DNA of 64,000 bases. Origin: Acidimicrobiales bacterium (GTDB lineage Bacteria; Actinomycetota; Acidimicrobiia; Acidimicrobiales; CADCSY01). The notes under the pieces are model-generated. The model was not told the origin of the DNA. It worked only from the letters and a program-made list of their open reading frames with translations, and searched no databases. Shown in pieces: positions 25,731 through 42,306 of the stretch. The DNA lies in the NCBI GenBank assembly GCA_030446545.1, contig JAUJNB010000001.1, positions 280,885 to 344,884 on the forward strand, given 5' to 3'. Every line of letters begins with the position of its first letter. The first letter of the stretch is position 1. The position numbers and the translations under genes are program-made.

Positions 25731-26237
25731 TCAGCTCATGACGGTGACCGGCACGGCGTAGAACATCACCAGGGCGAGAGCCACGTCGACGGCGTCGACC
25801 GTCTCGGCCATCTTGTTCGACCCCAAAACCCCCCCGAGGCTGGCTACCGGCGTGCGGTCCTCCCTTTCCAGCATCTCACGAGCGAAGCCGATCCTTCGAT
25901 AGAGGTAAGAACGGGGCCCAAGTCGGATCACGATCCCCCGGCGACGACGGCTGAGAAGGGCCGAGTCCGGTTGTACCGCCTCACCGCCGAGCGTTGCCAC
26001 CGACAACGCCACCGGGTCGACAAAGGACGTGTGTCGCCTGCCGTCGAGCCTTCCGAAGGGACCGAACTCGATGCTGGCGTCGGGCAGGTGGGGACCCCAA
26101 GCCCGGGTCCCCAGCCGGTGATCGGTGAAGCCCACCCAGGCTGGCCCGTACGGCCCCTCCTATCGAGTACGCACCTCCACACCCTCCGGGGAAGCCGGGC
26201 CATGCCCCGAGGGGTCACTGACGGTGAAGGTGGTCAA
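25731..26237 (-). pseudogene. multicopy ~170-aa family, copy with in-frame TAG
   Basis: TTG at 26237 gives LTTFTVSDPSGHGPASPEGVEVRTR, then TAG at 26160-26162 exactly where paralogs have the Tyr of Y-E-G-P-H/Y-G-P. It continues EGPYGPAWVGFTD..RAWGPHLP..GRLDGRRHTSFVD..LSRRRRGIVI..RSYLYR..VALALVMFYAVPV. Confidence 0.6.
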
Positions 26238-26246
26238 AGGCCGCCT

Positions 26247-26780
26247 CTACGCCTGTGCCCTGATGGCGCTGTCGGGTACGCCATAGAACATCACCAGGGC
26301 GAGGGCCACGTCGACGTCATCTGCCTCCTCAGCCACCTGATGGGGCGCTCTCACGCCTCCGAAACTGACCACCGGAGTGCGGTCGTCGCGCTCCAGCAGA
26401 GGGCTGGAGATGCCGGCGATGCGGTAGAGGTATAACCGGGGCCCAAGATCGATCTTGATACCCCGACGGCGGCGATTGAACAGGGCCCAGTTCGGTTGCA
26501 CGGCATTCCCCGACAGCTCTCCCACGCCGAGGGCTACTGGATCCACGAACGACGTATGTCGCTGGCCGTCCAGTCGCCCCGAAGGGCCGAAGTCGAAGCG
26601 GGCGTCCGGAACAAGGGGACCCCACGCCTGAGTGACCTGGTCATTGTTCGTGTAGGCCGCGAAGACGGGTCCGTGGGGCCCGTCGTAGTAGCTGTGGGCG
26701 ACGGCACCCGGTGGAGCACCAGGTGCGTCGCCGGAGGCGTCTCCGAGCCTGAAGGTGATCATGGGCGGCTTCGCTCTCAC
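26247..26780 (-). CDS. multicopy ~170-aa family protein, copy 4
   Basis: GTG at 26780 overlaps the upstream stop (GTGA). VRAKPPMITFRL..YYDGPHGPVFAA..QAWGPLVP..GRLDGQRHTSFVD..FNRRRRGIKI..RLYLYR..VDVALALVMFYGVPDSAIRAQA. Confidence 0.7.
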   Translation of the reverse strand: MRAKPPMITFRLGDASGDAPGAPPGAVAHSYYDGPHGPVFAAYTNNDQVTQAWGPLVPDARFDFGPSGRLDGQRHTSFVDPVALGVGELSGNAVQPNWALFNRRRRGIKIDLGPRLYLYRIAGISSPLLERDDRTPVVSFGGVRAPHQVAEEADDVDVALALVMFYGVPDSAIRAQA

Positions 26781-27217
26781 GTCGGCTTCGCCGCCGACGT
26801 CTCGGGAGGGAGGGCGATCTGGACCAGGTACGCGTCCCCCCCGGTGACCACGAAGCCCCCGGGCCCGAGACTGATTCTGATGCCCCGACGGCAGCAGTTG
26901 AACAGTGCCCAGCTCGGTTGCACCGCGTTCCCCGAGAGCTCTCCCACGCTGACGGCCACCGGATCCAGGAACGACGTATGTCGCCGCCCGTCCAGTCGCC
27001 CGGAAGGGCCGAAGTCGAGGCGGGCATCGGAGACATGGGGACCCCAGGCCCGAGTGACCTGGTCACCGTCGGTGTAGGCCGCGAGGACGGGCCCGTGCGG
27101 CCCTTCGTAGTGGCCACGGGTCACTACCCCCTGCGGCGAGGGAGGTGCGTCATCGGCCGCATCTCGGAGGGTGGCGGTCTTTGTCAGCACTTCGGCGTCA
27201 CGTCGGCTCACCGCCAA
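26777..27217 (-). CDS. chimeric ORF: N-terminal ~105 aa of the ~170-aa family fused to an essC-like 3' tail
   Basis: HYEGPHGPVLAA..RAWGPHVS..GRLDGRRHTSFLD..FNCCRRGIRI is followed by SLGPGGFVVTGGDAYLVQIALPPETSAAKPT*. That tail parallels the frame-corrected end of the 33846..38090 gene (PGRGFLVAG..EAALVQVALPPEVPGPPAV*). The DNA shares CTGGTCCAG(A/G)TCGCCCT..CCCGAG. Confidence 0.55.
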   Translation of the reverse strand: MAVSRRDAEVLTKTATLRDAADDAPPSPQGVVTRGHYEGPHGPVLAAYTDGDQVTRAWGPHVSDARLDFGPSGRLDGRRHTSFLDPVAVSVGELSGNAVQPSWALFNCCRRGIRISLGPGGFVVTGGDAYLVQIALPPETSAAKPT

Positions 27218-27312
27218 TGTCCTGGGAGCTCGACGGCTACCTCCAAGTGCCCGGCAGAGATCAGCTCGACGGCGTCAGGATCCATGGACACCGACGTCAT
27301 GGCCACCAGTAT
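27208..27312 (-). pseudogene. orphan 5' fragment of the effector family (start codon mutated ATG to ATA)
   Basis: The minus strand reads I-LVAMTSVSMDPDAVELISAGHLEVAVELPGHWR*, compared with MLVAMTSVFMDPDAVELLSARLSDIAVDLG in 24731..25684. Confidence 0.55.
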
Positions 27313-27483
27313 GGCGCCGCTGCACGTTTCCATACGCCTGCGCCTTGATGGCGCTGATCGGCCCCGTAGGGCTCGGCTGACCGTGACAGCGGTCCCTACC
27401 TGTATCGGTACCGATCCGCTCTTTTGTGGTGCTACGTTTCGCGTGTGCCGTCGCCGGGTGAGCTACGGGAAGAAGCCGCCGGC

Positions 27484-27804
27484 ATGGAGGGAGCGGCATC
27501 CCACAAGGAGGAGGTGGCCTACGAGCTGCGTCGCCAGGCCGCCCTGCTCCCCGAGGGCACGGATCGGGTGGACGGGACGATCACGCCCGCACTGTGGGAG
27601 GGCCGGGCGGCAGAGGCCGCCGACGATGCGCTGGCGAGCAGCGTCCGGTGGATTCGTCAGGCCGCCGAGGATCTGGAGGAGATCGCCGCCGAGCTCGAGG
27701 ACGAGGCCCACGGTCTTCGTCAGGACGCGGCCGACGCCGGCCGACAGGCCGACGACCTTCAAGCCGAGCTGGACGCCGAGGCCGACGCCGGTGCCGTCGC
27801 CTGA
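27484..27804 (+). CDS. small WXG-type / T7SS-signal-like helical protein (orphan, opposite strand)
   Basis: ATG at 27484 inside ORF 27424..27804, preceded by GGGAAGAAG. Reads MEGAASHKEEVAYELRRQAALLPEG..ITPALWEGRAAEAADDAL..EDLEEIAAELEDEA, with an acidic Ala/Asp tail. The W-x-G + AA pattern resembles the N-domain of the 14184..15915 toxin. Confidence 0.5.
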   Translation: MEGAASHKEEVAYELRRQAALLPEGTDRVDGTITPALWEGRAAEAADDALASSVRWIRQAAEDLEEIAAELEDEAHGLRQDAADAGRQADDLQAELDAEADAGAVA

Positions 27805-27899
27805 ACCCTCGGCCCGCCCCGGCCTTTCGCCAAGGGGTCCCTCCCCATGGGCACATGCCTGCGACTCCAGGGCCGACCGGTCGTCAGGGTTGCCCAGCG

Positions 27900-28406
27900 C
27901 TACCCCTCTCGAGCCTCAGGTGCCCGGCGCACCAGGTCGTGCAGGAGCCGGGCCAGCTGCGGCGGATCCTGGGTGGCCACGGCGACGTAGCCGGGCTGAC
28001 CGCGCTCCTTCACGATGACGTAGCGGTCACCCACGGCCGCTCCCCACTGACCCCCCGCCACCCGCACGTCGCTGGCGCGGTCACCGAACCAGCCGCCGAC
28101 GGTACCGGTGAAGCGCTGGCCGGCCGCCTGCTCCTCGAGCGGGGCGGGATCGAGATCGGCCAGGGCGAAGCGCTCCTTGCCGATCCGCAGGGTTTCTTCG
28201 GTGACCTCCAGCTTCCCGTAGCGCCGCTTGCTGTAGACGTAGGGACCGATCCCACCCAAGCCCACGACGGCACCGCCGAGCACGATGCTCAAGGCGTCGC
28301 CGGGGGTCCGGAGCACCGAGTCGATTGCCGTGCCGAGGGCGGTGACGGCAAGCAGGACCCACAGCGGAGTGAGAGACCCGCCCGGCTCAGTGTGCAGAAC
28401 ATTCAC
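27900..28406 (-). CDS. two-TM membrane protein with DUF3093/bacterial-PH-like soluble domain (candidate immunity)
   Basis: GTG start overlaps the upstream stop (GTGA). TM segments are LTPLWVLLAVTALGTAIDSVL and ALSIVLGGAVVGLGGIGPYVY. The soluble part reads KLEVTEETLRIGKERFALADL..YVIVKERGQPGYVAVATQDPPQLARLL. Confidence 0.6.
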   Translation of the reverse strand: MNVLHTEPGGSLTPLWVLLAVTALGTAIDSVLRTPGDALSIVLGGAVVGLGGIGPYVYSKRRYGKLEVTEETLRIGKERFALADLDPAPLEEQAAGQRFTGTVGGWFGDRASDVRVAGGQWGAAVGDRYVIVKERGQPGYVAVATQDPPQLARLLHDLVRRAPEAREG

Positions 28407-28936
28407 GCCTGTGCCGTGATGGCGCTTACCGGCACGCCTGCGAACAGCACCAGGGCGACGACCACATCCACCGGATCGGCTGACTCGGAGATCGCGTGGT
28501 CTCCGGTCACACCTCCGAGCGCGGCCACCGTCGATCGATCACCCCGCTCCAATGACGGCCGGGAGAAGCCAGTCACACGATAGAGGTAGGACCGGGCCTC
28601 CAGAGTCACCGCGATCCCCCGCCCGCGGCGGCTGAACAAGGTCCAATTCGGTCTGACCATCGCCCCGGAAGCTCCACCCACGGTGAGCGGTACCGGGTCC
28701 AGGTAGAAGGCGAGCGGCTGACCATCCGACCGACCGAAGGGGCCGGCCTCCAGCTGAGCACTCGGTACATGAGGTCCCCACGCGAACGTCGCTTCTTGGC
28801 TCTCGTTGTGACCGACGTACACCGGGCCGTGAGGGCCTTCGTAGCGACTACGAGCTGCCGTGCCCTCGGGCGAGCGGGGGGCGTCGCGGGGAGCCTCGTG
28901 CAGGCGGAAGCTGGTCATGGACGTCCGCGAGCTCAT
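28403..28936 (-). CDS. multicopy ~170-aa family protein, copy 6
   Basis: ATG at 28936 overlaps the stop of the upstream remnant (ATGA). MSSRTSMTSFRL..RYEGPHGPVYVG..FAWGPHVP..GRSDGQPLAFYLD..FSRRGRGIAV..RSYLYR..VDVVVALVLFAGVPVSAITAQA. Confidence 0.7.
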   Translation of the reverse strand: MSSRTSMTSFRLHEAPRDAPRSPEGTAARSRYEGPHGPVYVGHNESQEATFAWGPHVPSAQLEAGPFGRSDGQPLAFYLDPVPLTVGGASGAMVRPNWTLFSRRGRGIAVTLEARSYLYRVTGFSRPSLERGDRSTVAALGGVTGDHAISESADPVDVVVALVLFAGVPVSAITAQA

Positions 28937-29174
28937 CCGGGTGCCTCCACGCCGGGCAACAGGGCGCTCAGGCGTCGCCACACCTCTCCTGAGGACACCG
29001 GCTCGAGGGTCACTCCCAGGGCAGGGTCGTCGTAGGCGGCGGCGGCGAGCACGATGCTCAAGGCGTCCCCGGGCCCTGGAGCACCGAGTCGACCACCGTG
29101 CCGAGGGCGGTGACGGCAAGCAGGACCCACACCGGCGTGAGACGCGCGCCCAGCTCAGCGTGCAGAACGCTCAC
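28933..29174 (-). pseudogene. deletion chimera: 5' end of a DUF3093-like gene joined to 3' end of an EspG-like gene
   Basis: VSVLHAELGARLTPVWVLLAVTALGTVVDSVLQGPG.. is near-identical at the DNA level to the start of 27900..28406. After a 1-nt loss it runs into ..DALSIVL|AAAAYDDPALGVTLEPVSSGEVWRRLSALLPGVEAPG*. Confidence 0.6.
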
Positions 29175-29707
29175 GCCTGTGCCTTGATCGCGCTGGGAGG
29201 TACGCCGTAAAACATCACGAGGGCGACGGCCACGTCGACGGCATCCGCCGTCTCGGTGATCAGATGGCTCCCGAGGACGCCCTTGAGACTCGCCACCGGC
29301 GTGCCGTTCTGCCACTCCAACAGCTCACGTGGAGCGATCCCCGTGATCCGGTAGAGGTACGACCGGTTCTCCAAGGTGACCACAACCCCTCGGTGGCGGC
29401 GGCTGAACAGTGCCCATTCGGGCCGCACCACTTCTCCGGAGAGAGATCCCACGTGCAGCGGCACCGGTTTCATGTAGGCCGCGACCGGCTGGCCGTCCAG
29501 CCGTCCCCAATGGCCGACGTCGAGCTGGGTAGAGGGCACGTTGGGCCCCCATACCCGGGTGGCGGTCTGGTCGTCGCTGTACCCGACGTAGGCCGGCCCG
29601 TACGGCCCTTGGTACCCAGCGCGCACCTCCACGCCGTCGGGCGAGCGGGGGGTGTCGTCGGAAACACTTCCCAGGCTGAAGGCCACCATGGGTGCCTTGG
29701 GGGTCAC
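29171..29707 (-). CDS. multicopy ~170-aa family protein, copy 7
   Basis: GTG at 29707 overlaps the upstream stop (GTGA). VTPKAPMVAFSL..GYQGPYGPAYVG..RVWGPNVP..GRLDGQPVAAYMK..FSRRHRGVVV..RSYLYR..VDVAVALVMFYGVPPSAIKAQA. Confidence 0.7.
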   Translation of the reverse strand: MTPKAPMVAFSLGSVSDDTPRSPDGVEVRAGYQGPYGPAYVGYSDDQTATRVWGPNVPSTQLDVGHWGRLDGQPVAAYMKPVPLHVGSLSGEVVRPEWALFSRRHRGVVVTLENRSYLYRITGIAPRELLEWQNGTPVASLKGVLGSHLITETADAVDVAVALVMFYGVPPSAIKAQA

Positions 29708-30983
29708 CGGGACACCTGCGCCACGCCCGGCAGCAGGGCGCTCAGGCGTCGCCACACCTCTCCCGAGGACACCGGCCCGAGGGTCACACCCAGAGCGGGG
29801 TCGTCGAAGGCGGCGTCGTCGGGCACCGAAGAGATCCAGTAGCCGGCCTCGACGGCGTCGACCACGGTGAGCGAGCGGCTCCGCCGGGACCCCTCTCGCC
29901 AGAGAGAGGTGGCTCGCCACGTCAGGCGCCGGCTGCCCACCATGGTTGCTACTGCCGTGGCCCCTTGTCGATCGAGCCGGCCTTTGCCCATCAGGGATGC
30001 CACCGCCCGGGAGCCGGCACCGGCGTCGACGTTGGCCATGGTGGCGTCGAGGAGGTGACGCTCGACGGTGACGGGATGGTCGAGCGCCGGGGCGGGGCGC
30101 CGGCGGTGCAAGGCCAACTTGAACCTCAGCCTGACATGGCCGAGAGCCAGGTCCCGGTCACCGGGGTGGGGCGTGTCGAGGAGCTGTCGGGCCAGACGGT
30201 CGATCTCTCCCGCGCTCACTCGTTGGGGCCCGACTACCGCCCCGGAAACGCCGTCGCCCTCCAGCAGCCACAGCCCGTCATCGGTCCCGAAGGCCCGCAC
30301 CGTGCGCTCCGGCGAGTCCGAGCGCCAGACCGGAGCGCGCTGCAGCGTGGTGGTGGCGGCGGCGGCGGTGAGCTGCTGGAGGTCGGGCACGGCCCCGGCC
30401 GACCCATTGGGCGCGACCGGCGACCCGTCGCCGGCCCGGCCGTCGGGATCCAGGGCACCAAAGACGTAGATCGCCTCCCGGTCCAGCGAGCGGAAAACCA
30501 ATATGTGCTGGCCGGACTGGGTGTCGACGTCGTCGTGCAGGGCGATCCCGTCGCCGAGGACCAGGGTCGCCCCGGCCCACCCCGCTCGCTCCCCGGATCC
30601 GTGGCGCCAGGTGAGCTGGCCGACCGCATGTTGGAAGGCATGGACAACGGCGTCGAGCAGGGGGTCGCACTCGACCTCGTCAGGGGCGTCCTCGGGGTAG
30701 GAGATCACCTCGTGGGCGACGTCGAGTCGCTCGACGGTCCGGGTCGACAACGACCGGAGCGACGGGGTCAGCGGCCAGAGGTAAGGGGTCCAGTGGGGGT
30801 CGGGCTCCTCGGGGAGACCCGCAAGCCCGCGGCACAGGACCAGTTCCTCGTCGAGGACCTCGCCCACCACCACATCGGAGCTGGCCGCCAGGCCCCCAGC
30901 CGGCCCCACTCCACCACCCCGGAGCGGTCGGCCAGGGCGGACAGGTCGACAGGACTGGTGAGGTAGGGGCCGTCAGCGGTCAT
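29704..30983 (-). CDS. two-part protein: unknown N-terminal domain + EspG-like C-terminal half; one apparent frameshift near 30895-30915
   Basis: ATG at 30983 (MTADGPYLTSPVDLSALADRSGVVEW) lies in the frame of ORF 30768..31076. The body is in ORF 29704..30909 (..GGLAASSDVVVGEVLDEELVLCRG..). The N-half is paralogous to 32905..33782. The C-half (LALHRRRPAP..SRRLTWRATSLWREG..TVVDAVEAGYWISS..VSSGEVWRRLSALLP) is paralogous to 23926..24714. Confidence 0.5.
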
Positions 30984-32849: not shown

Positions 32850-32904
32850 CTCATCCCCTCTTCTTCCGACAGAGGACCACAGCCAACAGCGCGATGGTAG
32901 TGCG

Positions 32905-33782
32905 TCAACCCCGGCGCCAACGCCGCTTCCATCGAGGGGTGTCGTCGCCGAGGGACAGGAGCTGGCGGGCGGCGGCCAGGATCTCCTGGTCGCCCAGTCG
33001 CTGCAGGACGGCGCCAGGCTCGGCGCCCCGCCGGCCCTGGAACAGCCACAGCCCGTCATCGGCGCCGTAGGCGGTGACGGCCTGCTCCTTCCCGCCGCCG
33101 GCGGTGATCCCGGCGGCGGCCATCACCGTGGTGGAGCGGGCCCGGCGGGCCAACTCCGCCACCCGGGGGCGACCTCCTCGACGGTGGCCGCCACCTCGGG
33201 GGCGACGGTGGTGGTGGAGCGGCCGGTGGGGTCGAGCATGGCCGCCAGCCACGCCGCCTGGCGCTCCTGGGTGCGCAGGACCATCTCGTGCAGTCCCGAC
33301 TCGGCGGAGATGTCGTCGTGTAGGGCTAGGCCGTGGGGAACCACGAACGCTCCCCCGATCGCCGTACCCTCGTCGACCACGTCGGTGCGCCAGGTCACCA
33401 GGGCCGAGGCCTGCTGGACCGCCCACACCAAGGTGGCATGGGGTTGTTCGAACACCGGGCCGCCGTCGTCGCCGAAGCTCAACTGCCCCCGGGACAACAG
33501 CAGGCGGACACAGGCCTGCTTGGCGATGTCGGCCTCCTCGGCGGCCAGTGCGCTCAGGTGCGCCGTCCAGTGGGGGTCGCCCGTCGAGTCGGGGTCGTCG
33601 CCGCACAGGACCACCTCCTCGTCGGTGAAGGTGCCCACCACGATGTCGTGGGCGCGGGCCACCTCGGCCAGGCGTCCCTTGGCCAGGTCGGTGCTGGTCA
33701 GGGACAGGTCCAGGGGAGCGGGGCGGTGGAGGTCGGGGTTGGTCGCCACCACCGGATGGTAGTGAAGGCCCCCACCAGCCAT
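32905..33782 (-). CDS. unknown-domain protein (paralog of the N-half of 29704..30983), one apparent frameshift near 33165-33185
   Basis: ORF 33123..33821 reads ..DLSLTSTDLAKGRLAEVARAHDIVVGTFTDEEVVLCGDDPDSTGDPHW..GLALHDDISAESGLHEMVLR. It continues in the frame of ORF 32905..34185: ..AVTAYGADDGLWLFQGRRGAEPGAVLQRLGDQEILAAARQLLSLG. The start may be 33782 or 33821. Confidence 0.5.
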
Positions 33783-33845
33783 GCCGGCCAACCAGGGTCT
33801 TGCCCGCACCAGAGAGTCCACCGGCTCGGCGTGGAGAACGGCCGC

Positions 33846-36800
33846 TCAAACGGCCGGCGGCCCCGGCACCTCGGGGGCAGGGCGACCTGGACCAGGGCTG
33901 CCTCTCCCCGGCCACGAGAAAGCCCCGTCCCGGCACAAGGGCGACGGGGACTCGACGGGGCAGGCGTTGGCCCAGGAGCTCGCCGTCGGCGGACAGGTTG
34001 GGTTGGAGCAGGATGCCCGTGCGCGACTGGCGCAGGCCCTGGTCCAGTGCCCGTAGGCCGCCCGTAGATCGTCGCTGCGCCCGGCGGCCACCACGTGCAG
34101 GCCCGGCCGGCGTGACTGCAGGAGCGTCCCCAGCAGGCCGTCGACGTCGTCCACCTGGGGGGCGTCGTCGACGAAGACGAACCACCGACGACCGTCACCC
34201 GGGGCCACCCGGATGACCTGGGCCAACTGCGACAGGGTCCCGGCGGCGTCGAGCGCCTCCAGGGGATGCAGCGACGAGCGATCGTCACAGACCCCCACCA
34301 GCACGGTGGCCGGGTCGGCCCGGCGCACCAGGCTGGCCATCAGGGCCAGCGTGGAGGTCTTGCCACTGCGGGGCGGCCCGGCCACCAGCACGTGGTCACC
34401 GGCGTGCAGGGTCAGCACCGCCGGGCCGAGGTCGTCGTCGGCGATCCCGACCGTGAGCTCCACCGGCGCAGGCTCCAGCTTGGCCCCGCCCGGCAGCTCG
34501 TGGAAGGCCAAGGAAGGCGGGAGCCCCCGGATGACGGCCGGAGGCGGGCGCCGCCCGGCACCCGTTCCCCGCAGGAGGGGCGACAGGTCACCGGGATGGC
34601 CCACCTGCATCACCAGCTTGGTGGGCCCGTGGACGGCCCGGCCGGGGACGAAGGCCGGCAGTCGCTTCGGTCGCAGCCCGATGGCGGAGAAGTCGGCCGG
34701 GTCCGCCAGTCGGAAGAGGATCTTCTGGCTGACCAGGGCGGCCATGCGCGCCGGGAGCGATCCGGGACGCTCGCCGGCGACCACGAACAGGATGTCCACC
34801 TCGGGCCCGTCGGCGAACACCCGCCGGAAGGCCTCGGCCGTCTCGGTGCTTTCGATTCCCTCATGTTCGGCCACAAAGGCGCCGATGCCGTCGATGAGCA
34901 CGACGACGCGGGCCTCCCCCGCCCGGTCGCTCGGGCTCAGGGCGCGCCGACGGTCGAGCTCGCGACGCAGGTAGCGAACCAGCCGGAGCTGACCCTCGTG
35001 ATCTCCGGCGGGCACGACCGCCCCGACGTCGTCATGGGCCACCAGGGGGGCCAGGCCTCCCGCCCCGAAGTCGACGGCGTAGACGTGCCAGGGCCGGTCC
35101 TCGCACCGATGGAGCAGCGAGCGGGCCACCGCCAGCAGGGCCGTGGTCGTGCCGCCGCCCACCATCCCGAAAAGGGCCAGGTGCCCGTCGGCCGGGTTCC
35201 ACCCCACCACTGCCTGACGCTGGTGCTCCGGGTCGTCGGCCAGAGCGAAAGGCACGGTCCCGACGTCGGCCTCGAGCAAGAGGATGTCGTCCAACTCGAT
35301 TCGGTCGCTCAGCATCTCGAGCCACGGCCGCCGAGGTGGTGGCGCCTGGCCCCGTTCGAAGGCGGACACCACGGCGTCGACCAGGCGGGCCAGGTCGCTG
35401 GGCCCGTTACCGGGCTCGGGCCCGGTCGCGGGCGACGAGGGAAGGGAGCCGAAGCCAAAGGGGCTCAGGCGCAGGGCGGTCGTCCGCCGGGCCTGGCGGG
35501 TGGCGGTGGCCAAGGCCGTCTGTACCAACTCGACATCGGTCGGGCCCGACCGGACGTAGGCCCTGCCGGGGTTCGACCGGGCAATGGCGGCCGCATCCTT
35601 GCGGTCGATGATGTCGGAGGAGTCGCCGGCGTCCTGGACACGAAGGGCGATGCGCAGGTTGGTGTTGGCCTTGATGTTGCCGTTCACCGCTCCCGACGGC
35701 CGCTGGGTGGCGAGCACCAGGTGCACTCCGAGGCTGCGGCCCCGCTGCGCCACCCCGACCAGGGCGCCCAGGAACTCGGGAAGTTCGCTGGCCAGGGTGG
35801 CGAACTCGTCGACCACCACCACCAACCGGGGCAACGGACCCGAGGGCGAGCCGCTGCGCAGGTAGCTGGCCTGGTCCTGGGCGGCCGACACCCGCAGCAC
35901 GCGTTCTCGATGGGCCAGCTCGGCCTCCAGCGAGGTGAGGGCCCGCTCCCCGAGGTGTTCGTCGAGGTCGGTGACCAGCCCGACGACGTGGGGCAGACGG
36001 GCGCACTGGTCGAAGGCGCTGCCCCCCTTGTAGTCGACGAGGACGAACACCAGGTGGTCGGGGTCCACCCGGGCCGCCAGGCCGGCGACCAGAGAGCGCA
36101 GCAGCTCGCTCTTCCCCGACCCGGTGGTGCCGCCCACCAGGGCATGGGGCCCGTCGCGCACCAGGTCGATGTCGACCATCCCGCGCTCGCCCATGCCGAT
36201 GGGCGTGCGCAGGGGCGGGTCGGGCAGGCCCCGGGACCACGCCCGGGCCACGACGTCGGGGTCGACGTCGTCCATCTCGAGCAGGGGCAGCAGCCGCACC
36301 AGCTTGGGCAGGCCGCTCCCGAGCACCTCCAGCTCGGAGTCCTCGTAGCGGGCCAGGGCCCGGGCGGTGGCCCGAGCGGTGGCGTCGTCGACCCCTCCGA
36401 TCAGAAAGGCGTCGATGCGCACCCGGTCCCGGGGCCGACGGAGGTCGGCATCGCCCAGGGGCCGGAGGTCGACCACCACGGTGCACATGGCCGGCAACTG
36501 GTCCTCGCTCGGGGCCAACACCACCCCCGCCACCGGCCCGGCCGCACCGTTGAGCACCAGGCGGGCCGGGGCCCGCCGACCCTCGACGAGCGCCACGTCG
36601 TCGACCACCACCAGTCGGGTGCGGCCTCCGCTGGTGTCGGCCGGACGCGACCGCAGGCGCGAGCCCGGTCCGCCCTCGTCCCCGGAGGAGGCCAGCAGCT
36701 CGCTCAGCAGCGCCTCGCAGGCCGGGCGGTCACCCGCCAGCAACCGGGACGACCCGTCCACATGGCGGGTGTGGGGCAGCCACTTGGCCCAGTCCCAGTC

Positions 36801-38090
36801 GGAGGTATGCCCGCCGGAGGCCAAAACCACCACGGCCAGGTCGGCCGGCCCGTGATGCACCGCCGCCTGGCACACCAGGGACCGGGCCAGCGCCAGGCCG
36901 GCGGCCCGGTCCCCGACCAGTCCCACCACCCCCCCGGACGAGAGGTCGACCTCGACGGGAGCGTCGTGGAGCAGGGTGAAGCGGGCCATCACCCGGCCCA
37001 CCTCTTCGTCCATCTCGTCGCGAGGTCCCTCGACGGGCGGTGACCAGGGGACGGGGCCGGTCCCGGCGCGCAAGGCGAGGAAATCGTCGTGGACGGGACG
37101 ACGCTGCCAGAGCGTGGTACTCGGTGCGTGGGCCCGGCGCAGCGTCTCGGCGATGTCGACCAACCGTTCCTCGCCGCGCCGGACCTCGGCCGCGGCGGCG
37201 GCTCGCAGGGCCTGGTCGAAGGCCTCGAGGGCAGCTCGGAAATCCCGGCCTCTCGCCTTGTTCTCCTTGGTCGTCCGACGCCGGGACGACACGTAGTTGC
37301 CGATCATCATGATCGGGCTGAGCAGCATGAACAGGGCGAATCGGGGATCACGGTAGAAGTAGATGAGCGCTCCGCCCATCAACAGCGGGGCCACAACCGT
37401 GATCACGCTGAAAGCCCGGCTACGGCCGGAGCCCCGGGGCGGTTCCGGCGCTTTGATCGGCGGCGGTCCCTCAGCCGGCGCCGGGCGGGGCGGTCGGTTG
37501 AACGGGACGAGCCCGCCCACGGCCCGGTGCAGCGGGTCGATGGCCAGCGGCCGGTCGTCGGGGAGGCGCAGGCGCAGGCGCGCCTGGGTGGCGCCGAAAC
37601 GCACCAGGGCGCCCGGAGGCACGGGCGTGGGCCCGAGCACCGGGTGCCCGTCGATCCAGGTGCCGTTGTGTGACTCGAGATCGGTCACCACCACCGAGCC
37701 GTCGGGGACGACGTGGAGGCGGGCGTGGTGGGCCGAGAGGGTGGAGTCGGCCAGCGCCACCTCGCACGCCGGCGAGCGGCCCACCACCACCTCGCCGGGG
37801 CCGAGAGGGTGGGCCGATCCCGCCCCACGGCCGCCGACGAACATCAGGGTGGGGCCCTCGCCGGCGACTCGGGCCACGGGGGCCTTGCCGGCCACGTGCA
37901 CCATCGCCCCCTCGTGCAGGCCGATCTCGTCCAACCCGGCGTCGGCGCCGAAGTACCGCTCGGCGATGACCACCCCGGCTCCAGGGGCGGCGCCGATGGC
38001 GGCCACGAGGTCGGACACGCACGCCTGCGGGTGTTCGATGTCGAGGTCGAGCTCCTGCTCGGCCCCGTCGTGCACGACGACGATCTGCAC
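33846..38090 (-). CDS. FHA-domain FtsK/SpoIIIE-family triple ATPase (EssC/EccC-type T7SS-like coupling ATPase)
   Basis: 1414-aa ORF with a GTG start 12 nt after the tadA stop. FHA-like core: VVVGRSPACEVALADSTLSAHHARLHV..LESHNGTWIDG. Two TM helices: AFSVITVVAPLLMGGALIYFY and FALFMLLSPIMMIGNYV. Three P-loops: GGTTGSGKSELLRSLV, degenerate GMVGGGTTTALLAVA, and GPPRSGKTSTLALMA. The last ~70 codons as assembled look like off-frame junk. The expected ..LRQSRTGILLQPNLSADGELLGQRLP..PGRGFLVAG.. and ..EAALVQVALPP.. lie in the other two frames, implying about 3 single-nt indels near 34040, 33905 and 33875. Confidence 0.85.
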   Translation of the reverse strand: MQIVVVHDGAEQELDLDIEHPQACVSDLVAAIGAAPGAGVVIAERYFGADAGLDEIGLHEGAMVHVAGKAPVARVAGEGPTLMFVGGRGAGSAHPLGPGEVVVGRSPACEVALADSTLSAHHARLHVVPDGSVVVTDLESHNGTWIDGHPVLGPTPVPPGALVRFGATQARLRLRLPDDRPLAIDPLHRAVGGLVPFNRPPRPAPAEGPPPIKAPEPPRGSGRSRAFSVITVVAPLLMGGALIYFYRDPRFALFMLLSPIMMIGNYVSSRRRTTKENKARGRDFRAALEAFDQALRAAAAAEVRRGEERLVDIAETLRRAHAPSTTLWQRRPVHDDFLALRAGTGPVPWSPPVEGPRDEMDEEVGRVMARFTLLHDAPVEVDLSSGGVVGLVGDRAAGLALARSLVCQAAVHHGPADLAVVVLASGGHTSDWDWAKWLPHTRHVDGSSRLLAGDRPACEALLSELLASSGDEGGPGSRLRSRPADTSGGRTRLVVVDDVALVEGRRAPARLVLNGAAGPVAGVVLAPSEDQLPAMCTVVVDLRPLGDADLRRPRDRVRIDAFLIGGVDDATARATARALARYEDSELEVLGSGLPKLVRLLPLLEMDDVDPDVVARAWSRGLPDPPLRTPIGMGERGMVDIDLVRDGPHALVGGTTGSGKSELLRSLVAGLAARVDPDHLVFVLVDYKGGSAFDQCARLPHVVGLVTDLDEHLGERALTSLEAELAHRERVLRVSAAQDQASYLRSGSPSGPLPRLVVVVDEFATLASELPEFLGALVGVAQRGRSLGVHLVLATQRPSGAVNGNIKANTNLRIALRVQDAGDSSDIIDRKDAAAIARSNPGRAYVRSGPTDVELVQTALATATRQARRTTALRLSPFGFGSLPSSPATGPEPGNGPSDLARLVDAVVSAFERGQAPPPRRPWLEMLSDRIELDDILLLEADVGTVPFALADDPEHQRQAVVGWNPADGHLALFGMVGGGTTTALLAVARSLLHRCEDRPWHVYAVDFGAGGLAPLVAHDDVGAVVPAGDHEGQLRLVRYLRRELDRRRALSPSDRAGEARVVVLIDGIGAFVAEHEGIESTETAEAFRRVFADGPEVDILFVVAGERPGSLPARMAALVSQKILFRLADPADFSAIGLRPKRLPAFVPGRAVHGPTKLVMQVGHPGDLSPLLRGTGAGRRPPPAVIRGLPPSLAFHELPGGAKLEPAPVELTVGIADDDLGPAVLTLHAGDHVLVAGPPRSGKTSTLALMASLVRRADPATVLVGVCDDRSSLHPLEALDAAGTLSQLAQVIRVAPGDGRRWFVFVDDAPQVDDVDGLLGTLLQSRRPGLHVVAAGRSDDLRAAYGHWTRACASRARASCSNPTCPPTASSWANACPVESPSPLCRDGAFSWPGRGSPGPGRPAPEVPGPPAV

Positions 38091-38102: not shown

Positions 38103-39476
38103 TCAGCCCCGGTAGGGCGACGAGGGGCGGGCGGCGCCTGCGGTCCCGGCCTGGTCCCACCATCCCTGGGGTCGGCTCAACACCGAGGGGTCGAAGCCGG
38201 CCTCTTCCAGGTCGGCCTGGGTGCGGCTGCGCAGGGGCGCCCCGGGGACGGCCCGGCGATCCGGTCCCGGCTCGAACACCTCGTTGGAGATCACCATGGA
38301 GCCTTCGGCCCCCACCACCTCCCGGATCGAGGAGATGTAGCGACCGAACCGGCGCTCGTGGGTGTCGCGCCCGACGTAGACGACGAAGTCGAGGGCATTG
38401 GCCACGATGAGGTTGGTGGCCTCCAGCGGGAGGCGCTCGGGCGCCTGCACCGCGTACATGGCCAGCTTGCCAAAGGCGCCGGCCGAGGAGTTGGCGTGGA
38501 TGGTGCACATCGAGCCGTCGTTGCCCTGGCTCATGGCGTTGAGCATGGGCAGCACCTCGTCGCCCCGCACCTCACCGACGATGACCCGGTCGGGGTCCAT
38601 GCGCAGGCCCCACCGCACGAGCGCGGCCAGGGTGATGGCTCCCTCGCCCTCCACGTTGTGCTCGCGGGCCTCGAGGGCCACCACGTCGGGGTGGAGCTCG
38701 GGATAGCGGTCGACACCGAGCTCGAGGTTGTCCTCGATGGTGACCAGGCGCTCGTCGGGGTCGATCTCGTTGATGAGGGCCCGCAACAGGGTGGTCTTGC
38801 CGGCGTCGACCCCCCCGCAGACGATGATGTTCTTGCGGGCCCGCACGGCTGCGGCCAGGAACTCCTGCAGGGCGAGGTCGATGGTGCCCAGGCCGACCAG
38901 GTCTTCGAGGAACAGCTTGGGATAGCGGTGGCGGCGGATGGCCACGCACGGGTGCGACGTCACCGCCATCACCGCGAACAGGCGGCTCCCGTCGGGCAGC
39001 TGCACGCTCAGTCGAGGAGCGCCGACATCGAAGCGCCGCTCGGTCAGGCCCACCCGGGCCGCCGTCATCCGCAGCGTCTCGATCAGCTCCTCGTCGCTGT
39101 CGGCGATGGCCGGCCCGAGCTCCTTGGTGCCGTCGGCCCGGGTGATCCACACCTCGGCCGCGCCGTTGATGTTGATGTTCTCGATGGTCTCGTCCTCGAG
39201 CAGCCGCTGCAGGGTGCCGAGGCCGAAGAGGGCGTCGTGGACGGCCTGGGCCAGCGACATCTCCTCCTCGGCGGAGAGGGGGACACGCCCCTCCTCGAGC
39301 TCCTCGCGGGCGAAGACGGCCAGCCGCTCGTTGATGAGCTGGCGCCCGAACAGGCGCTGGTCGACCTGGCTCAGCCGGGCGCGGCTGGAGGCGGTGTCCT
39401 CACGCAGCCGGTCGGTCAACTTGTCGGCCACCTCCTGGCGGAAGCGGCGGACGAGCACCTGGTCAGCGCGGTCCAT
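38103..39476 (-). CDS. tadA: CpaF/TadA-family type II/IV secretion ATPase
   Basis: ATG at 39476 (MDRADQVLVRRFRQEV) inside ORF 38103..40130. Walker A is VCGGVDAGKTTLLRAL. Also shows RVIVGEVRGDEV and MSQGNDGSMCTIHANS. Confidence 0.9.
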   Translation of the reverse strand: MDRADQVLVRRFRQEVADKLTDRLREDTASSRARLSQVDQRLFGRQLINERLAVFAREELEEGRVPLSAEEEMSLAQAVHDALFGLGTLQRLLEDETIENININGAAEVWITRADGTKELGPAIADSDEELIETLRMTAARVGLTERRFDVGAPRLSVQLPDGSRLFAVMAVTSHPCVAIRRHRYPKLFLEDLVGLGTIDLALQEFLAAAVRARKNIIVCGGVDAGKTTLLRALINEIDPDERLVTIEDNLELGVDRYPELHPDVVALEAREHNVEGEGAITLAALVRWGLRMDPDRVIVGEVRGDEVLPMLNAMSQGNDGSMCTIHANSSAGAFGKLAMYAVQAPERLPLEATNLIVANALDFVVYVGRDTHERRFGRYISSIREVVGAEGSMVISNEVFEPGPDRRAVPGAPLRSRTQADLEEAGFDPSVLSRPQGWWDQAGTAGAARPSSPYRG

Positions 39477-40623
39477 CGGGGTTCTCCTCGTCTGGGGGAT
39501 CGGGAGGGGGGCCCGACGACGGTGGGTCCGCCTCGGACAGGTGGGGACGGGCCTGGAGGGGCCGGGCCCGCGCCGTGCGACGAGGCCGCTCGGTCGGGGG
39601 CTGGCGAGGTCGGGGAGGCTCCGAGGATCTCGCCGGTGTGGGGGCCGGCGCCACCGTGGTGGCCAGGTCGGCCAGCGATCGCCACGGCGCCACCGGCTCG
39701 GCCGGGGCGCCCGAGGGCGCCAGGGCGGGCACCGGCGGCTCGGGATCCGGCTCCAGCTGTCGCGACCAGGGCCGGGCCGGCGGTGGCGGGGGAGGCGGCG
39801 GCGATGGCGCCTGCTCACGCCCCGCCAGGGGTGGTGGGTGCCGGAGCTGCTCGGGCTCCGGGTCGGGCCAGGTGGCCACCGAGGACCGCCCGTCGGCGCT
39901 CCCGGACCCCATTCGGGCCGACAGCTGCTCGGCCAGGGTACGGGCCGTGCGCAGGAGACCCGAGGCCCGCAGCACCCGCGACCGGCCGTGGTCGCCGCCG
40001 GACAGCAGCTCGGCGGCCCGGGCGTCGTCGGCGATGGTCCCGAGGGGCTGGGCCCCGACCGCCCGGCCGGCCTCGACCACGCCGTAGGGGCGGTCGCCGA
40101 CCAGCAGCAACGCCGTCGCCACCCCGGCACCGAGGGCCTGCACCCGCGCCGCCAGGTGGTGCAGCTGGGAGACCTGTGGCCGGGCCACCAGGATCATCAG
40201 CTCCGCCGCCCGCACCATGGCCATGACCGGCGACGCCGGGTCGAGCCGCCCGCAGTCGGCCAGCACGTCGATGCCGTCGAGCCCGGCCAGCAGGTTGGCC
40301 AGCCGAGAGCTCAGGGCCGACAGGGCGGCGGTGGACTGCTCGGCCGAGGCCGGGCCGGCCAGGACCTGGACTGCGTCGGAACCGGGCAGGGGCTGCGTCT
40401 GTTGCCACAGCATCTCCGGCGTCAGCTCTCGGCGGCCCTCGGCCGCCAACCGCACCAGGCCCCGCTCGACGTCCAAGCCCAGGCGAGGAGCCAGGTCGCC
40501 GCCGGCCGGGTCGGCCTCCACCACCAGGAGGCGCCGGTCGCCGGGCCAGCGGGCGGCCAGAGCGGCCACCGCCGTGGTCACGCCCGGCGAACCCTTGGCC
40601 GAGCCCAGTGCGACCAGCGTCAC
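39463..40623 (-). CDS. ParA/MinD-like ATPase-fold protein (TadZ/CpaE- or Ssd-like) with Pro-rich tail
   Basis: GTG at 40623 overlaps the upstream stop (GTGA). VTLVALGSAKGSPGVTTAVAALAA is a deviant P-loop region. The C-terminal ~130 aa are rich in Pro, Ala and Glu. Confidence 0.65.
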   Translation of the reverse strand: MTLVALGSAKGSPGVTTAVAALAARWPGDRRLLVVEADPAGGDLAPRLGLDVERGLVRLAAEGRRELTPEMLWQQTQPLPGSDAVQVLAGPASAEQSTAALSALSSRLANLLAGLDGIDVLADCGRLDPASPVMAMVRAAELMILVARPQVSQLHHLAARVQALGAGVATALLLVGDRPYGVVEAGRAVGAQPLGTIADDARAAELLSGGDHGRSRVLRASGLLRTARTLAEQLSARMGSGSADGRSSVATWPDPEPEQLRHPPPLAGREQAPSPPPPPPPPARPWSRQLEPDPEPPVPALAPSGAPAEPVAPWRSLADLATTVAPAPTPARSSEPPRPRQPPTERPRRTARARPLQARPHLSEADPPSSGPPPDPPDEENPDGPR

Positions 40624-41339
40624 CGGTCGGGCACCAGGACCAGGCTGACCCGGCCCTCGGCCGATGCCCCGGCGATGTCGGGCGCCCCTTCCCGGGGCAC
40701 GGCGAGGGACACCACCGCGGTGGACCCGTCGACCAGCTCGTCGCTGGCGAACACCCGGGCCTCGGCCAACACCCGCCCGAGGGAGCCCGGTGCCACGCTG
40801 CCGGCCGGGCGACCCGCTCCCCCGTCGAGATCGGCGGGGGCCGACGACGAGGCGTTGAGCACCACCAGCACCTGGTCGCCGGGCTGGAGCCGGCCCGAGG
40901 GCAACTGCTCGCGCGGCACGGGCACGCCCACCACCACGTCGCCCTCGGCCAGGAGCGACGCGTCCCCCCACTGACCCTGGGTCAGCAGCGCGCCCGGTAC
41001 CAGATCGACGGCGGCCGACTGGCCGATGACCGCAGCCCGCCGGTCGGCACCGACCGGCCGCAGGCCGGGGTCGGCGGAGACCCGCACCACCGCGAGGTCG
41101 GCAGCCTCGATGAGCTGACCCTCCGGCACCGGCCGGGCCACCGCCAGCACGGGCTCGCGCCCGCCGGCGTTCACCCACAACAGAGCGAAGGCCAGAGCCG
41201 AGCCGATGGTGACGAGGATCGACACCAGGGCGAGCGACCAGCGTCGCTGACGGGTCGGGCCCGAAGGCACCCGAGGGGGTCGGTCGGGGCCACGGGGCGC
41301 CGGGGCGGCCCGACGAGTCGGTGCGCTGGTGCTCGCCAT
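40620..41339 (-). CDS. SAF-domain / CpaB-like Flp pilus assembly protein
   Basis: ATG at 41339 (MASTSAPTRR..). Has one TM segment (WSLALVSILVTIGSALAFALLWV), then PVLAVARPVPEGQLIEAADLAVVRV (SAF-like). Confidence 0.65.
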   Translation of the reverse strand: MASTSAPTRRAAPAPRGPDRPPRVPSGPTRQRRWSLALVSILVTIGSALAFALLWVNAGGREPVLAVARPVPEGQLIEAADLAVVRVSADPGLRPVGADRRAAVIGQSAAVDLVPGALLTQGQWGDASLLAEGDVVVGVPVPREQLPSGRLQPGDQVLVVLNASSSAPADLDGGAGRPAGSVAPGSLGRVLAEARVFASDELVDGSTAVVSLAVPREGAPDIAGASAEGRVSLVLVPDR

Positions 41340-41346
41340 GTCGCTC

Positions 41347-42306
41347 CTAGTCGTCTTCGGTGGAGGAGTCGGGGGAGGTGGGGCGTCCCGCCCCGTCGTC
41401 GGGGCTGCCCGTCGCCAGGAGGGACTCGCCTCGGCCCGGGTCGTCGCTCTGGGGGCCGAGGGGCACCATGACCTCCATCCGGTCTCCGTCCCCGCCGTCG
41501 GACACCACCAGGGTGCCACCGGCCGTGCCGTCGGACGGGAGTGGCCTCATCGACTCCGTGGCCGGGCCCGGCGACGAAGCCACCCCGGCCACCGTCGCCC
41601 CCTCCCCCGGGCCGAGGCCGACGGCGTCGTCGGGCAGGCGCAGCGTCCACCCCGGGTAGATCCGGTCGGGGTCGGCCATGGTGGCGCCGTCGGGCTGCTC
41701 GCGTCCCTGGTTCAGCTCCCAGATCTCCACCCACCGGAAGGGATCGCGCAAGCACGTCTCGGCGATCCCCCACAACGTGTCGCGCTGCTGCACCACGTAG
41801 GTCGGTTGGGCGTCCGCGCCTGCCAGGTCGGTGAGCTCGGCCCCGCTGGCCACCACCCCGGCCGTGGCCGCCGGCATCGGCACGGGCACGGCCTGCACGG
41901 TGCGATCGGGCCGGGTGAGCAGAAGGATGACCATCAGCGAGACAGCGGCGACCAGCCGGGCCACGAGCCGCTGGACCGGGCCGGTGAGCGGGACCCGCCC
42001 GGCCTGGCGCCCGCGCACGACGGCGACCACCTCCACCAGCAGCGACGCCACCAGTTCGACCCACACGATCCAACACACCACCGCCAGCGCCTTGGCCAGG
42101 AAGGTGTCAGGGATGTAGCTGTCGCCCAGCGCAGTGGTGACCTGCGACCAGCTGGGGATGGCCGACGGCAGGGGCCAGCCGACGAAGGTCGACAAGGCCC
42201 AGGGCACCCCGCCCACCAGGGCGGCGATGGCCACCGCCCCCAGTGCGCCGCGCGCCAGGTCGGGACCTCGGGGAATGGCCTGTGTCGCTACCGGTCCCGT
42301 CACCAT
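41347..42306 (-). CDS. membrane protein with LysM peptidoglycan-binding domain
   Basis: 319-aa ORF with several N-terminal TM segments. The LysM-like segment reads YVVQQRDTLWGIAETCLRDPFRWVEIWELN..IYPGWTLRLP. Confidence 0.7.
   Translation of the reverse strand: MVTGPVATQAIPRGPDLARGALGAVAIAALVGGVPWALSTFVGWPLPSAIPSWSQVTTALGDSYIPDTFLAKALAVVCWIVWVELVASLLVEVVAVVRGRQAGRVPLTGPVQRLVARLVAAVSLMVILLLTRPDRTVQAVPVPMPAATAGVVASGAELTDLAGADAQPTYVVQQRDTLWGIAETCLRDPFRWVEIWELNQGREQPDGATMADPDRIYPGWTLRLPDDAVGLGPGEGATVAGVASSPGPATESMRPLPSDGTAGGTLVVSDGGDGDRMEVMVPLGPQSDDPGRGESLLATGSPDDGAGRPTSPDSSTEDD

Follow-up and report, generated by a model that had tools for sequence, protein, structure and literature searches.

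An in-frame chimera of a cassette gene and an EssC-type 3' end: a probable recombination scar in an Acidimicrobiales type VII secretion-like locus

In T7SSb, coupling between the C-terminus of the secretion ATPase and the effector cassettes is thought to set substrate choice. In Staphylococcus aureus and in group B Streptococcus, the variable essC 3' end is co-inherited with downstream effectors (PMC10327511, PMC9900821). In Listeria monocytogenes and L. seeligeri, the T7SSb locus can hold a second, truncated essC of another variant, regarded as a pseudogene, which co-occurs with that variant's toxins and with an enlarged variable region (PMC10327511). FHA-bearing actinobacterial relatives of EssC have been described as T7SSd (PMC11217815).

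Here we describe an open reading frame (ORF) from an Acidimicrobiales bacterium in which a gene of an unnamed ~170-aa protein family runs in frame into the last codons of an EssC-type ATPase (the "relic"). It lies in a 64,000-nt stretch of DNA, the window, to which all coordinates refer. The Listeria second essC is the closest precedent, and we regard the two as the same kind of footprint. Each appears as a 3' remnant of a non-resident essC type, sits downstream in a variable region, is followed by effector-type cassettes (here family, toxin-like and EspG-like genes), and is read as a trace of module exchange. The relic lies 7 kb downstream of the resident essC stop at 33846 (minus strand), on the same strand and within a variable cassette region, and is as close or closer to the tails of other organisms as to the resident one. 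In size the two differ: the Listeria copies are free-standing, begin at about residue 771, take in the variable D3 region and extend over hundreds of codons to the C-terminus, whereas the relic is 27 codons fused in frame to an unrelated cassette gene and is no large remnant of that type. The setting differs as well: the Listeria locus is a firmicute T7SSb, whereas the present host is an Acidimicrobiales-type actinobacterium whose locus combines EspG-like genes with a divergent FHA-EssC. As in S. aureus and group B Streptococcus, where the essC 3' end and following genes form one exchangeable unit, the content 3' of essC varies between close relatives; no full-length alternative allele set was seen in this lineage, and 27 codons cannot delimit the variable part. 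The parallel with firmicute T7SSb loci drawn in a preliminary description of this DNA therefore holds through Listeria, while the parallel it drew with Rhs/CDI systems is reduced to an analogy, discussed below.

The resident ATPase and the chimeric reading frame

All genes discussed are on the minus strand, and downstream of essC they form a repeated-cassette array from 33.8 to 20.5 kb. The main features are as follows.

33846-38090, minus strand: essC/eccC-like T7SS ATPase, 1414 aa, with FHA and FtsK/SpoIIIE P-loop domains (Pfam)
33846-33927, minus strand: resident essC tail, R-GFLVAGE?AALVQVALPPEVPGPPAV and stop, 2 nt short as assembled
29704-30909 and 23926-24879, minus strand: EspG-like genes (PF14011, E 7.6e-6, 26.1 bits against a cutoff of 27)
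Six to eight copies in the array, minus strand: genes of the ~170-aa family
27226-27340, minus strand: surviving 5' part of a toxin-like gene (I/MLVAMTSVSMDPDAVEL...), next to the chimera on its upstream side
26777-27217, minus strand: chimeric ORF, 146 aa counted from TTG
GTG start at 27124: P0001, the public gene call of the chimeric ORF, 115 aa
26861-27181, minus strand: family-derived part of the chimera, aligned to family residues ~2-108
26858-26860, minus strand: junction codon; the chimera has GGG, the copy at 21 kb has TTG and intact family genes have CGG
26777-26857, minus strand: EssC-type tail relic, GFVVTGGDAYLVQIALPPETSAAKPT and stop, from HMM, tblastn, shuffles and the separate assembly L011
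26247-26780, minus strand: intact family gene P0002 directly 3' of the relic, 171 aa from ATG 26762
24731-25684, minus strand: one example of the toxin-like genes, which start MLVAMTSV...

The resident ATPase matches PF01580 in two stretches (E 8e-37) and has a third NTPase region at 1234-1344, a multi-P-loop arrangement. Its best NCBIfam match is TIGR03928 (EssC; E 1e-144), at 483.9 bits against a cutoff of 778.4, and it scores 360.8 against 509 and 250 against 347 with TIGR03924/5 (EccCa/b). Since it passes none of these curated equivalog cutoffs and represents a divergent subtype, we call it essC-like. A WXG100-like ORF downstream matches TIGR03930 with an E-value of 2.4e-4, below the cutoff, and the nearest essC in a genome is that of Aquihabitans sp. 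G128 (49% identity over the last 205 residues).

As assembled, the essC end passes through three frames. Piecewise three-frame alignment to P0005, an 80% identical homologue, restores the conserved reading ...VPGRGFLVAGE?AALVQVALPPEVPGPPAV and stop (...HWTRALRQSRTGILLQPNLSADGELLGQRLPRRVPVALVPGRGFLVAGE?AALVQVALPPEVPGPPAV) with three 1-nt additions, near 34035, near 33901 and in the C5 run at 33873-33877, all homopolymer-type sites. These gaps are probably assembly errors, and otherwise a real lesion. Frameshifting throughout the window was considered and rejected, the overlapping stop-to-stop ORFs being separate genes. The array itself holds at least eight other gene relics between 20 and 34 kb, and the 90% cluster of the toxin-like protein includes a relative labelled 'Acidimicrobiales bacterium'.

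The chimeric ORF aligns with the ~170-aa family over ~105 residues, up to ...FNCCRRGIRISLGP (RRGIRISLGP, 26861), with 72% identity to P0002. It then reads GGFVVTGGDAYLVQIALPPETSAAKPT and stop, 27 codons (26860-26780) of an EssC-type C-terminus. The Arg/Gly codon and the stop are 84 nt apart both here and in the frame-corrected resident tail, and both DNAs contain the motif GGGGCTT..GTGG..CTGGTCCAG(A/G)TCGCCCT..CCCGAG. On these points, the switch after ~105 family residues, the colinearity with the ATPase end, the shared motif and the indels of the resident 3' end, the preliminary description was borne out. It had also stated that in both cases the stop is followed at once by the next gene; this is exact for the chimera, in which the stop codon and the following GTG overlap as GTGA, and approximate for essC, where a GTG lies 25 nt 3' of the stop and EspG-like homology starts ~170 nt away. 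Separately, the 5' end of L001 has 20 of 21 nt (CCGACGTGAGAGCGGAGCCGC) in common with the relic-stop/next-gene junction, with no convincing tail upstream of those positions, and is at most a hint.

In the family-derived part, alignment shows KTATLRD where the family has M-x-T-F-x-L, with loss of the ATG, and CCRR in place of the conserved RRRR. The chimera matches the family profile only over positions 22-108; the C-terminal ~65 residues, with RSYLYR...LER.D and the hydrophobic C-terminal helix, are replaced, and no full-length family match was found. To judge from this alignment, the chimera is a truncated derivative and no intact family member. In an AlphaFold (AF2) model of the family (pLDDT 84, pTM 0.85) the break falls within a beta-hairpin, and is predicted to cost four strands and the C-terminal helix.

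The tail as an EssC-type C-terminus

Window G+C is ~70-75%, the match between the two tails spans only ~60 nt (19-27 residues), and column identity in a MAFFT alignment is modest, all of which would suit a chance likeness between two GC-rich ORF ends rich in Gly, Ala, Pro and Val. We compared the 92-nt tail with both strands of the window (128 kb) by Smith-Waterman alignment under three scoring schemes. Outside the tail itself and its paralogue regions, the essC 3' end was the top match in all three, and its score was reached by 1 of 60, 0 of 60 and 0 of 60 dinucleotide-preserving shuffles. A tblastn search with the corrected resident C-terminus matched 26887-26801 (57% identity, E 2.3e-4). 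We also built an EssC-tail HMM from 56 C-termini of EssC homologues, all from other organisms and none from the window. Run against six-frame ORFs of the window, a database of the same composition, it ranked the true essC end first (6e-21) and the chimera tail second (1.8e-4), with the third match at 0.017. Together with the equal 84-nt lengths, these results leave chance very improbable, and the reservation that the similarity might be no better than expected for GC-rich sequence can be set aside.

The relic agrees at all conserved positions with the tail signature of EssC in other organisms, G-F-[VL]-V-x-G-G-x-A-x-L-x-Q-[VI]-A-L-P-P-E, and fits the profile G-[FY]-x-V-x-x-G-x(4,5)-Q-[VIL]-A, after which LPPE often follows. 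Homologue tails such as those of P0006 (GFVVVGGEPTLAQIALPPE and stop), P0008 (GFLVSGGEATLVQVALPP) and P0005 (GFLVVAGEPALTQVALPPD...) follow the pattern PGRGF[LV]V..GG....Q[VI]ALPPE, and distant EssC-like proteins terminate in VQVALPPE.., although this word had itself partly served to select them. By its sequence, then, we identify the chimera tail as a homologue of the EssC-type 3' end. No further essC-like sequence was found in the window besides the resident gene and the 27-codon relic.

Two other relationships were considered. Deep homology between the family's RRRRGI.I.LGPR.YLY and essC's LPRR.PV.L.PGRGFLV was rejected: it amounts, by eye, to ~49% DNA identity over 39 nt, and the chimera is the only family member that scores with the tail profile. 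A frameshifted family sequence is also unlikely as the source, since none of the tail's frames encodes family sequence.

The tail could instead be a normal alternative C-terminus of the family, as its open frame and its gene call as P0001 in a public predicted-protein collection might suggest. The family is rare and is without a Pfam or NCBIfam entry: a word-indexed search of 5.8 billion proteins gave four matches, and a full HMMER scan of 1.84 billion representatives gave 55 relatives. We tested 58 sequences, the 55 from the profile scan and three from the first search, and an EssC-type tail was present in none of the other members (0 of 58). Among the 55 relatives from the profile scan only P0001, the chimera itself, matches the EssC-tail profile; against family proteins it scores 5e-6 and the next 0.15. 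The 90% cluster of P0001 also includes an intact form of the same gene with an ordinary family C-terminus, and the predicted break in the beta-hairpin would remove much of the fold. We therefore give almost no credence to a family variant, the second possibility that the preliminary description had held against its own reading.

The junction, its second copy and an intact allele

Several features would favour an assembly chimera, with reads mis-joined across repeated family genes: the source is apparently a metagenome-assembled genome (MAG), closely related sequences occur in several metagenome runs, the region is rich in repeats, and 1-nt gaps cluster in the essC end. A Logan assembly of SRR24765285 (L011) is base-identical to the window through junction and tail, with six differences over its full 2.4 kb. 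The junction also recurs, as the preliminary description had noted, in a second and diverged copy at 21 kb.

21250-21357, minus strand: family-derived piece of the second copy
21226-21249, minus strand: second, diverged junction with 8 tail codons, LGFVVTGG

This copy (~21221-21357) is 88% identical to 26832-26967. Because mis-assembly could not produce a junction diverged by 12%, and because the separate assembly is identical, we exclude an assembly artefact for practical purposes.

The second copy also bears on the age of the junction. Upstream it is joined, at a GGATCC repeat, to a toxin 5' relic (21358-21400), within a segment (21358-21448) that is 90% identical to 27275-27365; downstream it is fused to an EspG-like 3' end of ~70 codons (21017-21225). 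It is out of frame and further deleted. Since it keeps the junction, the junction appears to have arisen once and to have been duplicated later.

In the chimera, the copy at 21 kb and intact paralogues alike, the family sequence continues through CTC GGG CCC. The essC codon before GGC TTT is CGG, as is the corresponding codon of intact family genes. From these sequences the ancestral junction codon was probably CGG (Arg), common to LGP-R-SYLY of the family and VPG-R-GFLV of essC, and we infer that the two genes were joined in frame there through 3-6 nt of microhomology.

The intact form of the chimera's gene is P0118 (180 aa), encoded on the ENA metagenome contig L015 (ERZ1758345). It reads ...RRRRGIRISLGP/RSYLYRIAGISSPLLERDD...AIRAQA, continues at the junction as ...LGP/RSYLYRIAGISS... 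and ends in an ordinary family C-terminus. The family part of the chimera is 94% identical in nucleotides to this allele (L015:225-578), and the contig is colinear with window positions 27434-25631 at 88-94% identity, apart from segment 26246-25892, a deletion of its own, and the following block.

26433-26857, minus strand: block of 425 nt missing from L015, comprising the tail relic and the 5' two-thirds of the P0002 gene

In place of this block, L015 has the single intact gene P0118. Chimera-type nucleotide markers persist in L015 until 6 nt before the junction, and its boundary falls at most 9 nt from that of the chimera. In a comparison of site patterns, 3 sites unite the chimera and the copy at 21 kb to the exclusion of L015, and 1 site favours each of the two other groupings. 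L015 may be either the unrecombined ancestral allele or the product of a secondary, precise deletion: the coincident boundary (at most 9 nt) and the site patterns (3 against 1 and 1) speak for the former, and the presence of a separate deletion nearby speaks for the latter.

The state of these copies also weighs on whether the chimera is a functional fusion, in which a truncated family protein with the EssC terminal hairpin might bind to the ATPase or disturb its action. Its tail continues the open frame as far as the essC stop, two assemblies give the same relic sequence, and the consensus residues of the relic are intact. Against this, the family start codon is gone and RRRR is mutated, the fold is predicted to be truncated, the sister copy at 21 kb has lost the frame and more of its sequence, L015 does not have the block, and P0087 (below) would imply loss of the whole 28.9-24.4 kb interval in the strains that carry it. 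We consider a functional fusion highly unlikely; most likely the chimera is a decaying pseudogene whose frame happens to stay open. With the tail frame open, a truncated protein may still be expressed from it.

Related loci attest to continuing rearrangement. In related assemblies, P0087 is an in-frame chimera of family residues 1-44 and an EspG-like protein, joined at a shared Gly-His (GH), and P0069 is another in-frame chimera, with an internal deletion. P0087 joins a family gene at ~28.9 kb to an EspG-like gene at ~24.4 kb, which suggests that the intervening DNA was lost in those strains. Gene content 3' of essC varies among the close relatives L003, L009, L010 and L012, with WXG-like genes in L010 and L012 and a convergent EspG-like/family pair in L009. 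In none of the relatives examined did a family gene of the same orientation come straight after essC. The array is clearly unstable and reshuffled by microhomology joins.

Source of the tail and a possible replacement of cassettes

Over its 19-residue core, the relic is identical to the resident tail at 13 of 19 positions, to P0006 at 14 of 19 and to P0008 at 13 of 18. Where it departs from the resident tail (V/L, T/A, G/E, I/V), functional EssC proteins vary too, and a direct reading finds synonymous differences in 5 of ~12 codons for the same amino acid. The 13/19 identity and the synonymous changes argue against a recent copy of the resident gene and point, on few residues, to a diverged essC allele or an old paralogue as the source. 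The relic, at 27 codons, is too short for phylogenetic placement.

Candidate donors were sought in several collections. Two degenerate DNA patterns (GFVV.GG...L.QIALPPE and a looser form) gave no match in JGI metagenome contigs, and none of 59 EssC homologues carried the relic's tail; no full-length essC allele ending in it turned up in these searches. A profile scan for orphan tails in the related loci examined returned genuine essC ends and L011 only. P0010 and P0014, short EssC C-terminal proteins encoded on long contigs and at first sight orphan tails, were rejected as pieces of frameshift-split full genes in error-rich assemblies, in which rpoB/C and topA are likewise split.

We conclude that the chimera is very probably a recombination scar, in which a family gene was fused in frame to ~27 codons of a non-resident essC-like end, and that it is likely a pseudogene. 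The EssC signature and the 13/19 match to the resident tail thus support the proposal of the preliminary description that a family gene recombined here with the 3' end of another essC-like gene. The family gene would have been joined after codon ~108 (...LGP) to the last ~27 essC-like codons, at microhomology around the Arg codon (GGG CCC CGG in the family, CCG GGA CGG in essC). The donor essC-like gene would have been followed directly by another family gene, now at 26247-26780.

The sequence of events and the origin of the donor, foreign or resident, we infer. In the route that we prefer, incoming DNA with an essC 3' part and its own cassettes would have entered the locus by one homologous crossover within essC and one illegitimate crossover at the far end. 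The old essC tail and old downstream genes would then have been left ~7 kb from the ATPase, on the same strand and between two cassette groups. Later the chimeric block would have been duplicated, and the copy at 21 kb trimmed by two to three further microhomology deletions. This scenario would account for the strand and position of the relic and for the overlap between its stop and the start of the family gene. Replacement or displacement of cassettes 3' of the ATPase is plausible on these grounds; tandem duplication followed by deletion, or the arrival of a block that was chimeric beforehand, could have led to the same arrangement.

For tandem duplication of the resident essC 3' end and its cassettes, with later deletions and long divergence and with no foreign or alternative allele, the arguments are the wealth of segmental duplicates and deletion relics in the array, the location of the relic downstream of essC on the same strand, and the failure of pattern scans of JGI contigs to yield a donor allele. 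The divergence between relic and resident tail (13/19 and synonymous changes) nevertheless matches the level seen between organisms, and the confinement of differences to positions where functional EssC proteins vary suggests, from 19 residues, selection as a working essC end. We regard such a duplication as unlikely, if by no means negligible.

The preferred route, by incoming DNA, resembles homology-facilitated illegitimate recombination, described in naturally transformable bacteria, which combines one homologous anchor with one microhomology join. That process would yield a product of just this kind: a foreign segment joined through microhomology at one end, while the homologous crossover at the other end leaves no visible trace. 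Rhs and CdiA loci hold orphan or displaced C-terminal toxin-immunity modules, and there a conserved junction motif guides homologous exchange. Like the present array, they build up 5'-truncated gene ends by successive recombination, possibly a reservoir for re-assortment; unlike it, they displace the toxin tip of an effector, whereas here the end of a secretion ATPase is displaced, apparently joined illegitimately through 3-6 nt of microhomology. Pfam and NCBIfam searches found no Rhs or CdiA sequence in the window, and we compare these systems by analogy and not by homology.

The chimera is a real yet fairly ordinary footprint of cassette shuffling. For annotation, it flags a likely pseudogene called as a protein (P0001), a probable error, or real lesion, where essC ends, and a protein family, so far unnamed, that is associated with EspG-like genes. 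For the locus, the relic serves as a dated footprint: a cassette gene once bordered an essC-type end at a point that now lies 7 kb inside the array. In related strains the chimera coexists with an intact allele, with a copy reduced by further deletion and with other fusions, which indicates that reshuffling goes on. The relic also hints that the coupling of ATPase C-terminus and effector cassette is not limited to firmicutes. By analogy with the firmicute systems, the essC-like 3' end and the following cassettes might pass together from strain to strain as a single specificity module, the relic and its overlapping family gene being a displaced older module; we offer this as a tentative reading, possible though doubtful at present. 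If true, essC-module switching would extend to a deep actinobacterial lineage with EspG-like proteins and an uncharacterised ~170-aa beta-rich family.

Relics and fusions within the cassette array

The cassette array downstream of essC, the resident essC/eccC-like T7SS ATPase gene, contains two further gene remnants next to one another:

29174-29067 (-): 36-codon 5′ relic of a 168-aa membrane-protein gene
29061-28942 (-): 40-codon EspG-like 3′ relic

Both remnants (28942-29174 (-)) sit between two genes of the ~170-aa cassette family, a placement which indicates that they are the product of tandem duplication followed by deletion. In related strains, two Logan contigs of about 1.5 kb (P0087 and P0125) join residues 1-44 of the ~170-aa family in frame to the central part of an EspG-like protein, and the fusion point is a Gly-His common to both partners. 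Placed relative to the window, the partners lie at ~28900 and ~24400. The fusion implies that those strains have undergone a deletion of ~4.5 kb, in which the chimera of family gene and essC-type tail, together with the tail relic itself, would be lost.

The stop junction of the essC-type tail relic also has an echo outside the window. A 21-nt sequence, CCGACGTGAGAGCGRAGCCGC, which covers the final two codons of the relic, the stop codon and the leader of the next gene, recurs in the related metagenome contig L001 (100-175), upstream of a frameshifted family gene and separated from it by a ~45-nt partial repeat. This segment of L001 may be a still more eroded copy of the relic's junction. The same contig conserves a small ORF from the array's opposite strand, at L001 510-932 (-), where it lies in divergent orientation upstream of a toxin-like gene:

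27424-27804 (+): small helical, WXG-like ORF

Frame disruptions

One family copy aligns over its full length to its paralogues and carries an in-frame stop near 26160:

25731-26237 (-): ~170-aa family copy

Compared with L011, an independent assembly, the window shows three single-base indels (26242, 26238 and 26191), all in the 5′ part of this copy. Frameshifts are also concentrated where essC meets the array (32900-34050 (-)). The first ~1350 codons of essC are clean, and its last ~200 nt contain three 1-nt gaps. The next gene, EspG-like (33821-32935 (-)), is frame-broken as well and truncated, its match to a 401-aa paralogue being limited to residues 2-247. These boundary frameshifts could be artifacts of assembling a region that varies among strains, or the locus could really be decaying.

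A rare family and its neighborhood

The ~170-aa family matches no entry in Pfam or NCBIfam, and a scan of 1.84 billion representatives turned up only 55 relatives. At most of its loci (20479-29920 (-) of the window; L001, L002, L009, L014 and L015 among related contigs and loci), it adjoins an EspG-like gene, a toxin-like gene or both. An AF2 model predicts a C-terminal hydrophobic helix with about 13 β-strands around or beside it. No PDB fold matched this model at E < 0.4, and a tubby/LURP1-like barrel is no more than conjecture.

Genes of Tad/Flp-pilus type lie on both sides of essC and the entire array, with a kinase and a phosphatase just upstream of the locus:

19131-20388 (-): membrane-protein ORFs, opposite flank; no family match, may be TadB/C-like
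38103-40130 (-): CpaF-like T2SSE ATPase
40620-41519 (-): RcpC/CpaB, same flank as the CpaF-like ATPase
42355-43850 and 46320-47948 (-): Ser/Thr protein kinase and PPM (SpoIIE-type) phosphatase with CHASE3/HAMP domains

The kinase and phosphatase bring to mind the kinase/phosphatase/FHA association reported for newly described T7SS subtypes (PMC11217815). The essC cassette array may have inserted into an operon of pilus genes.
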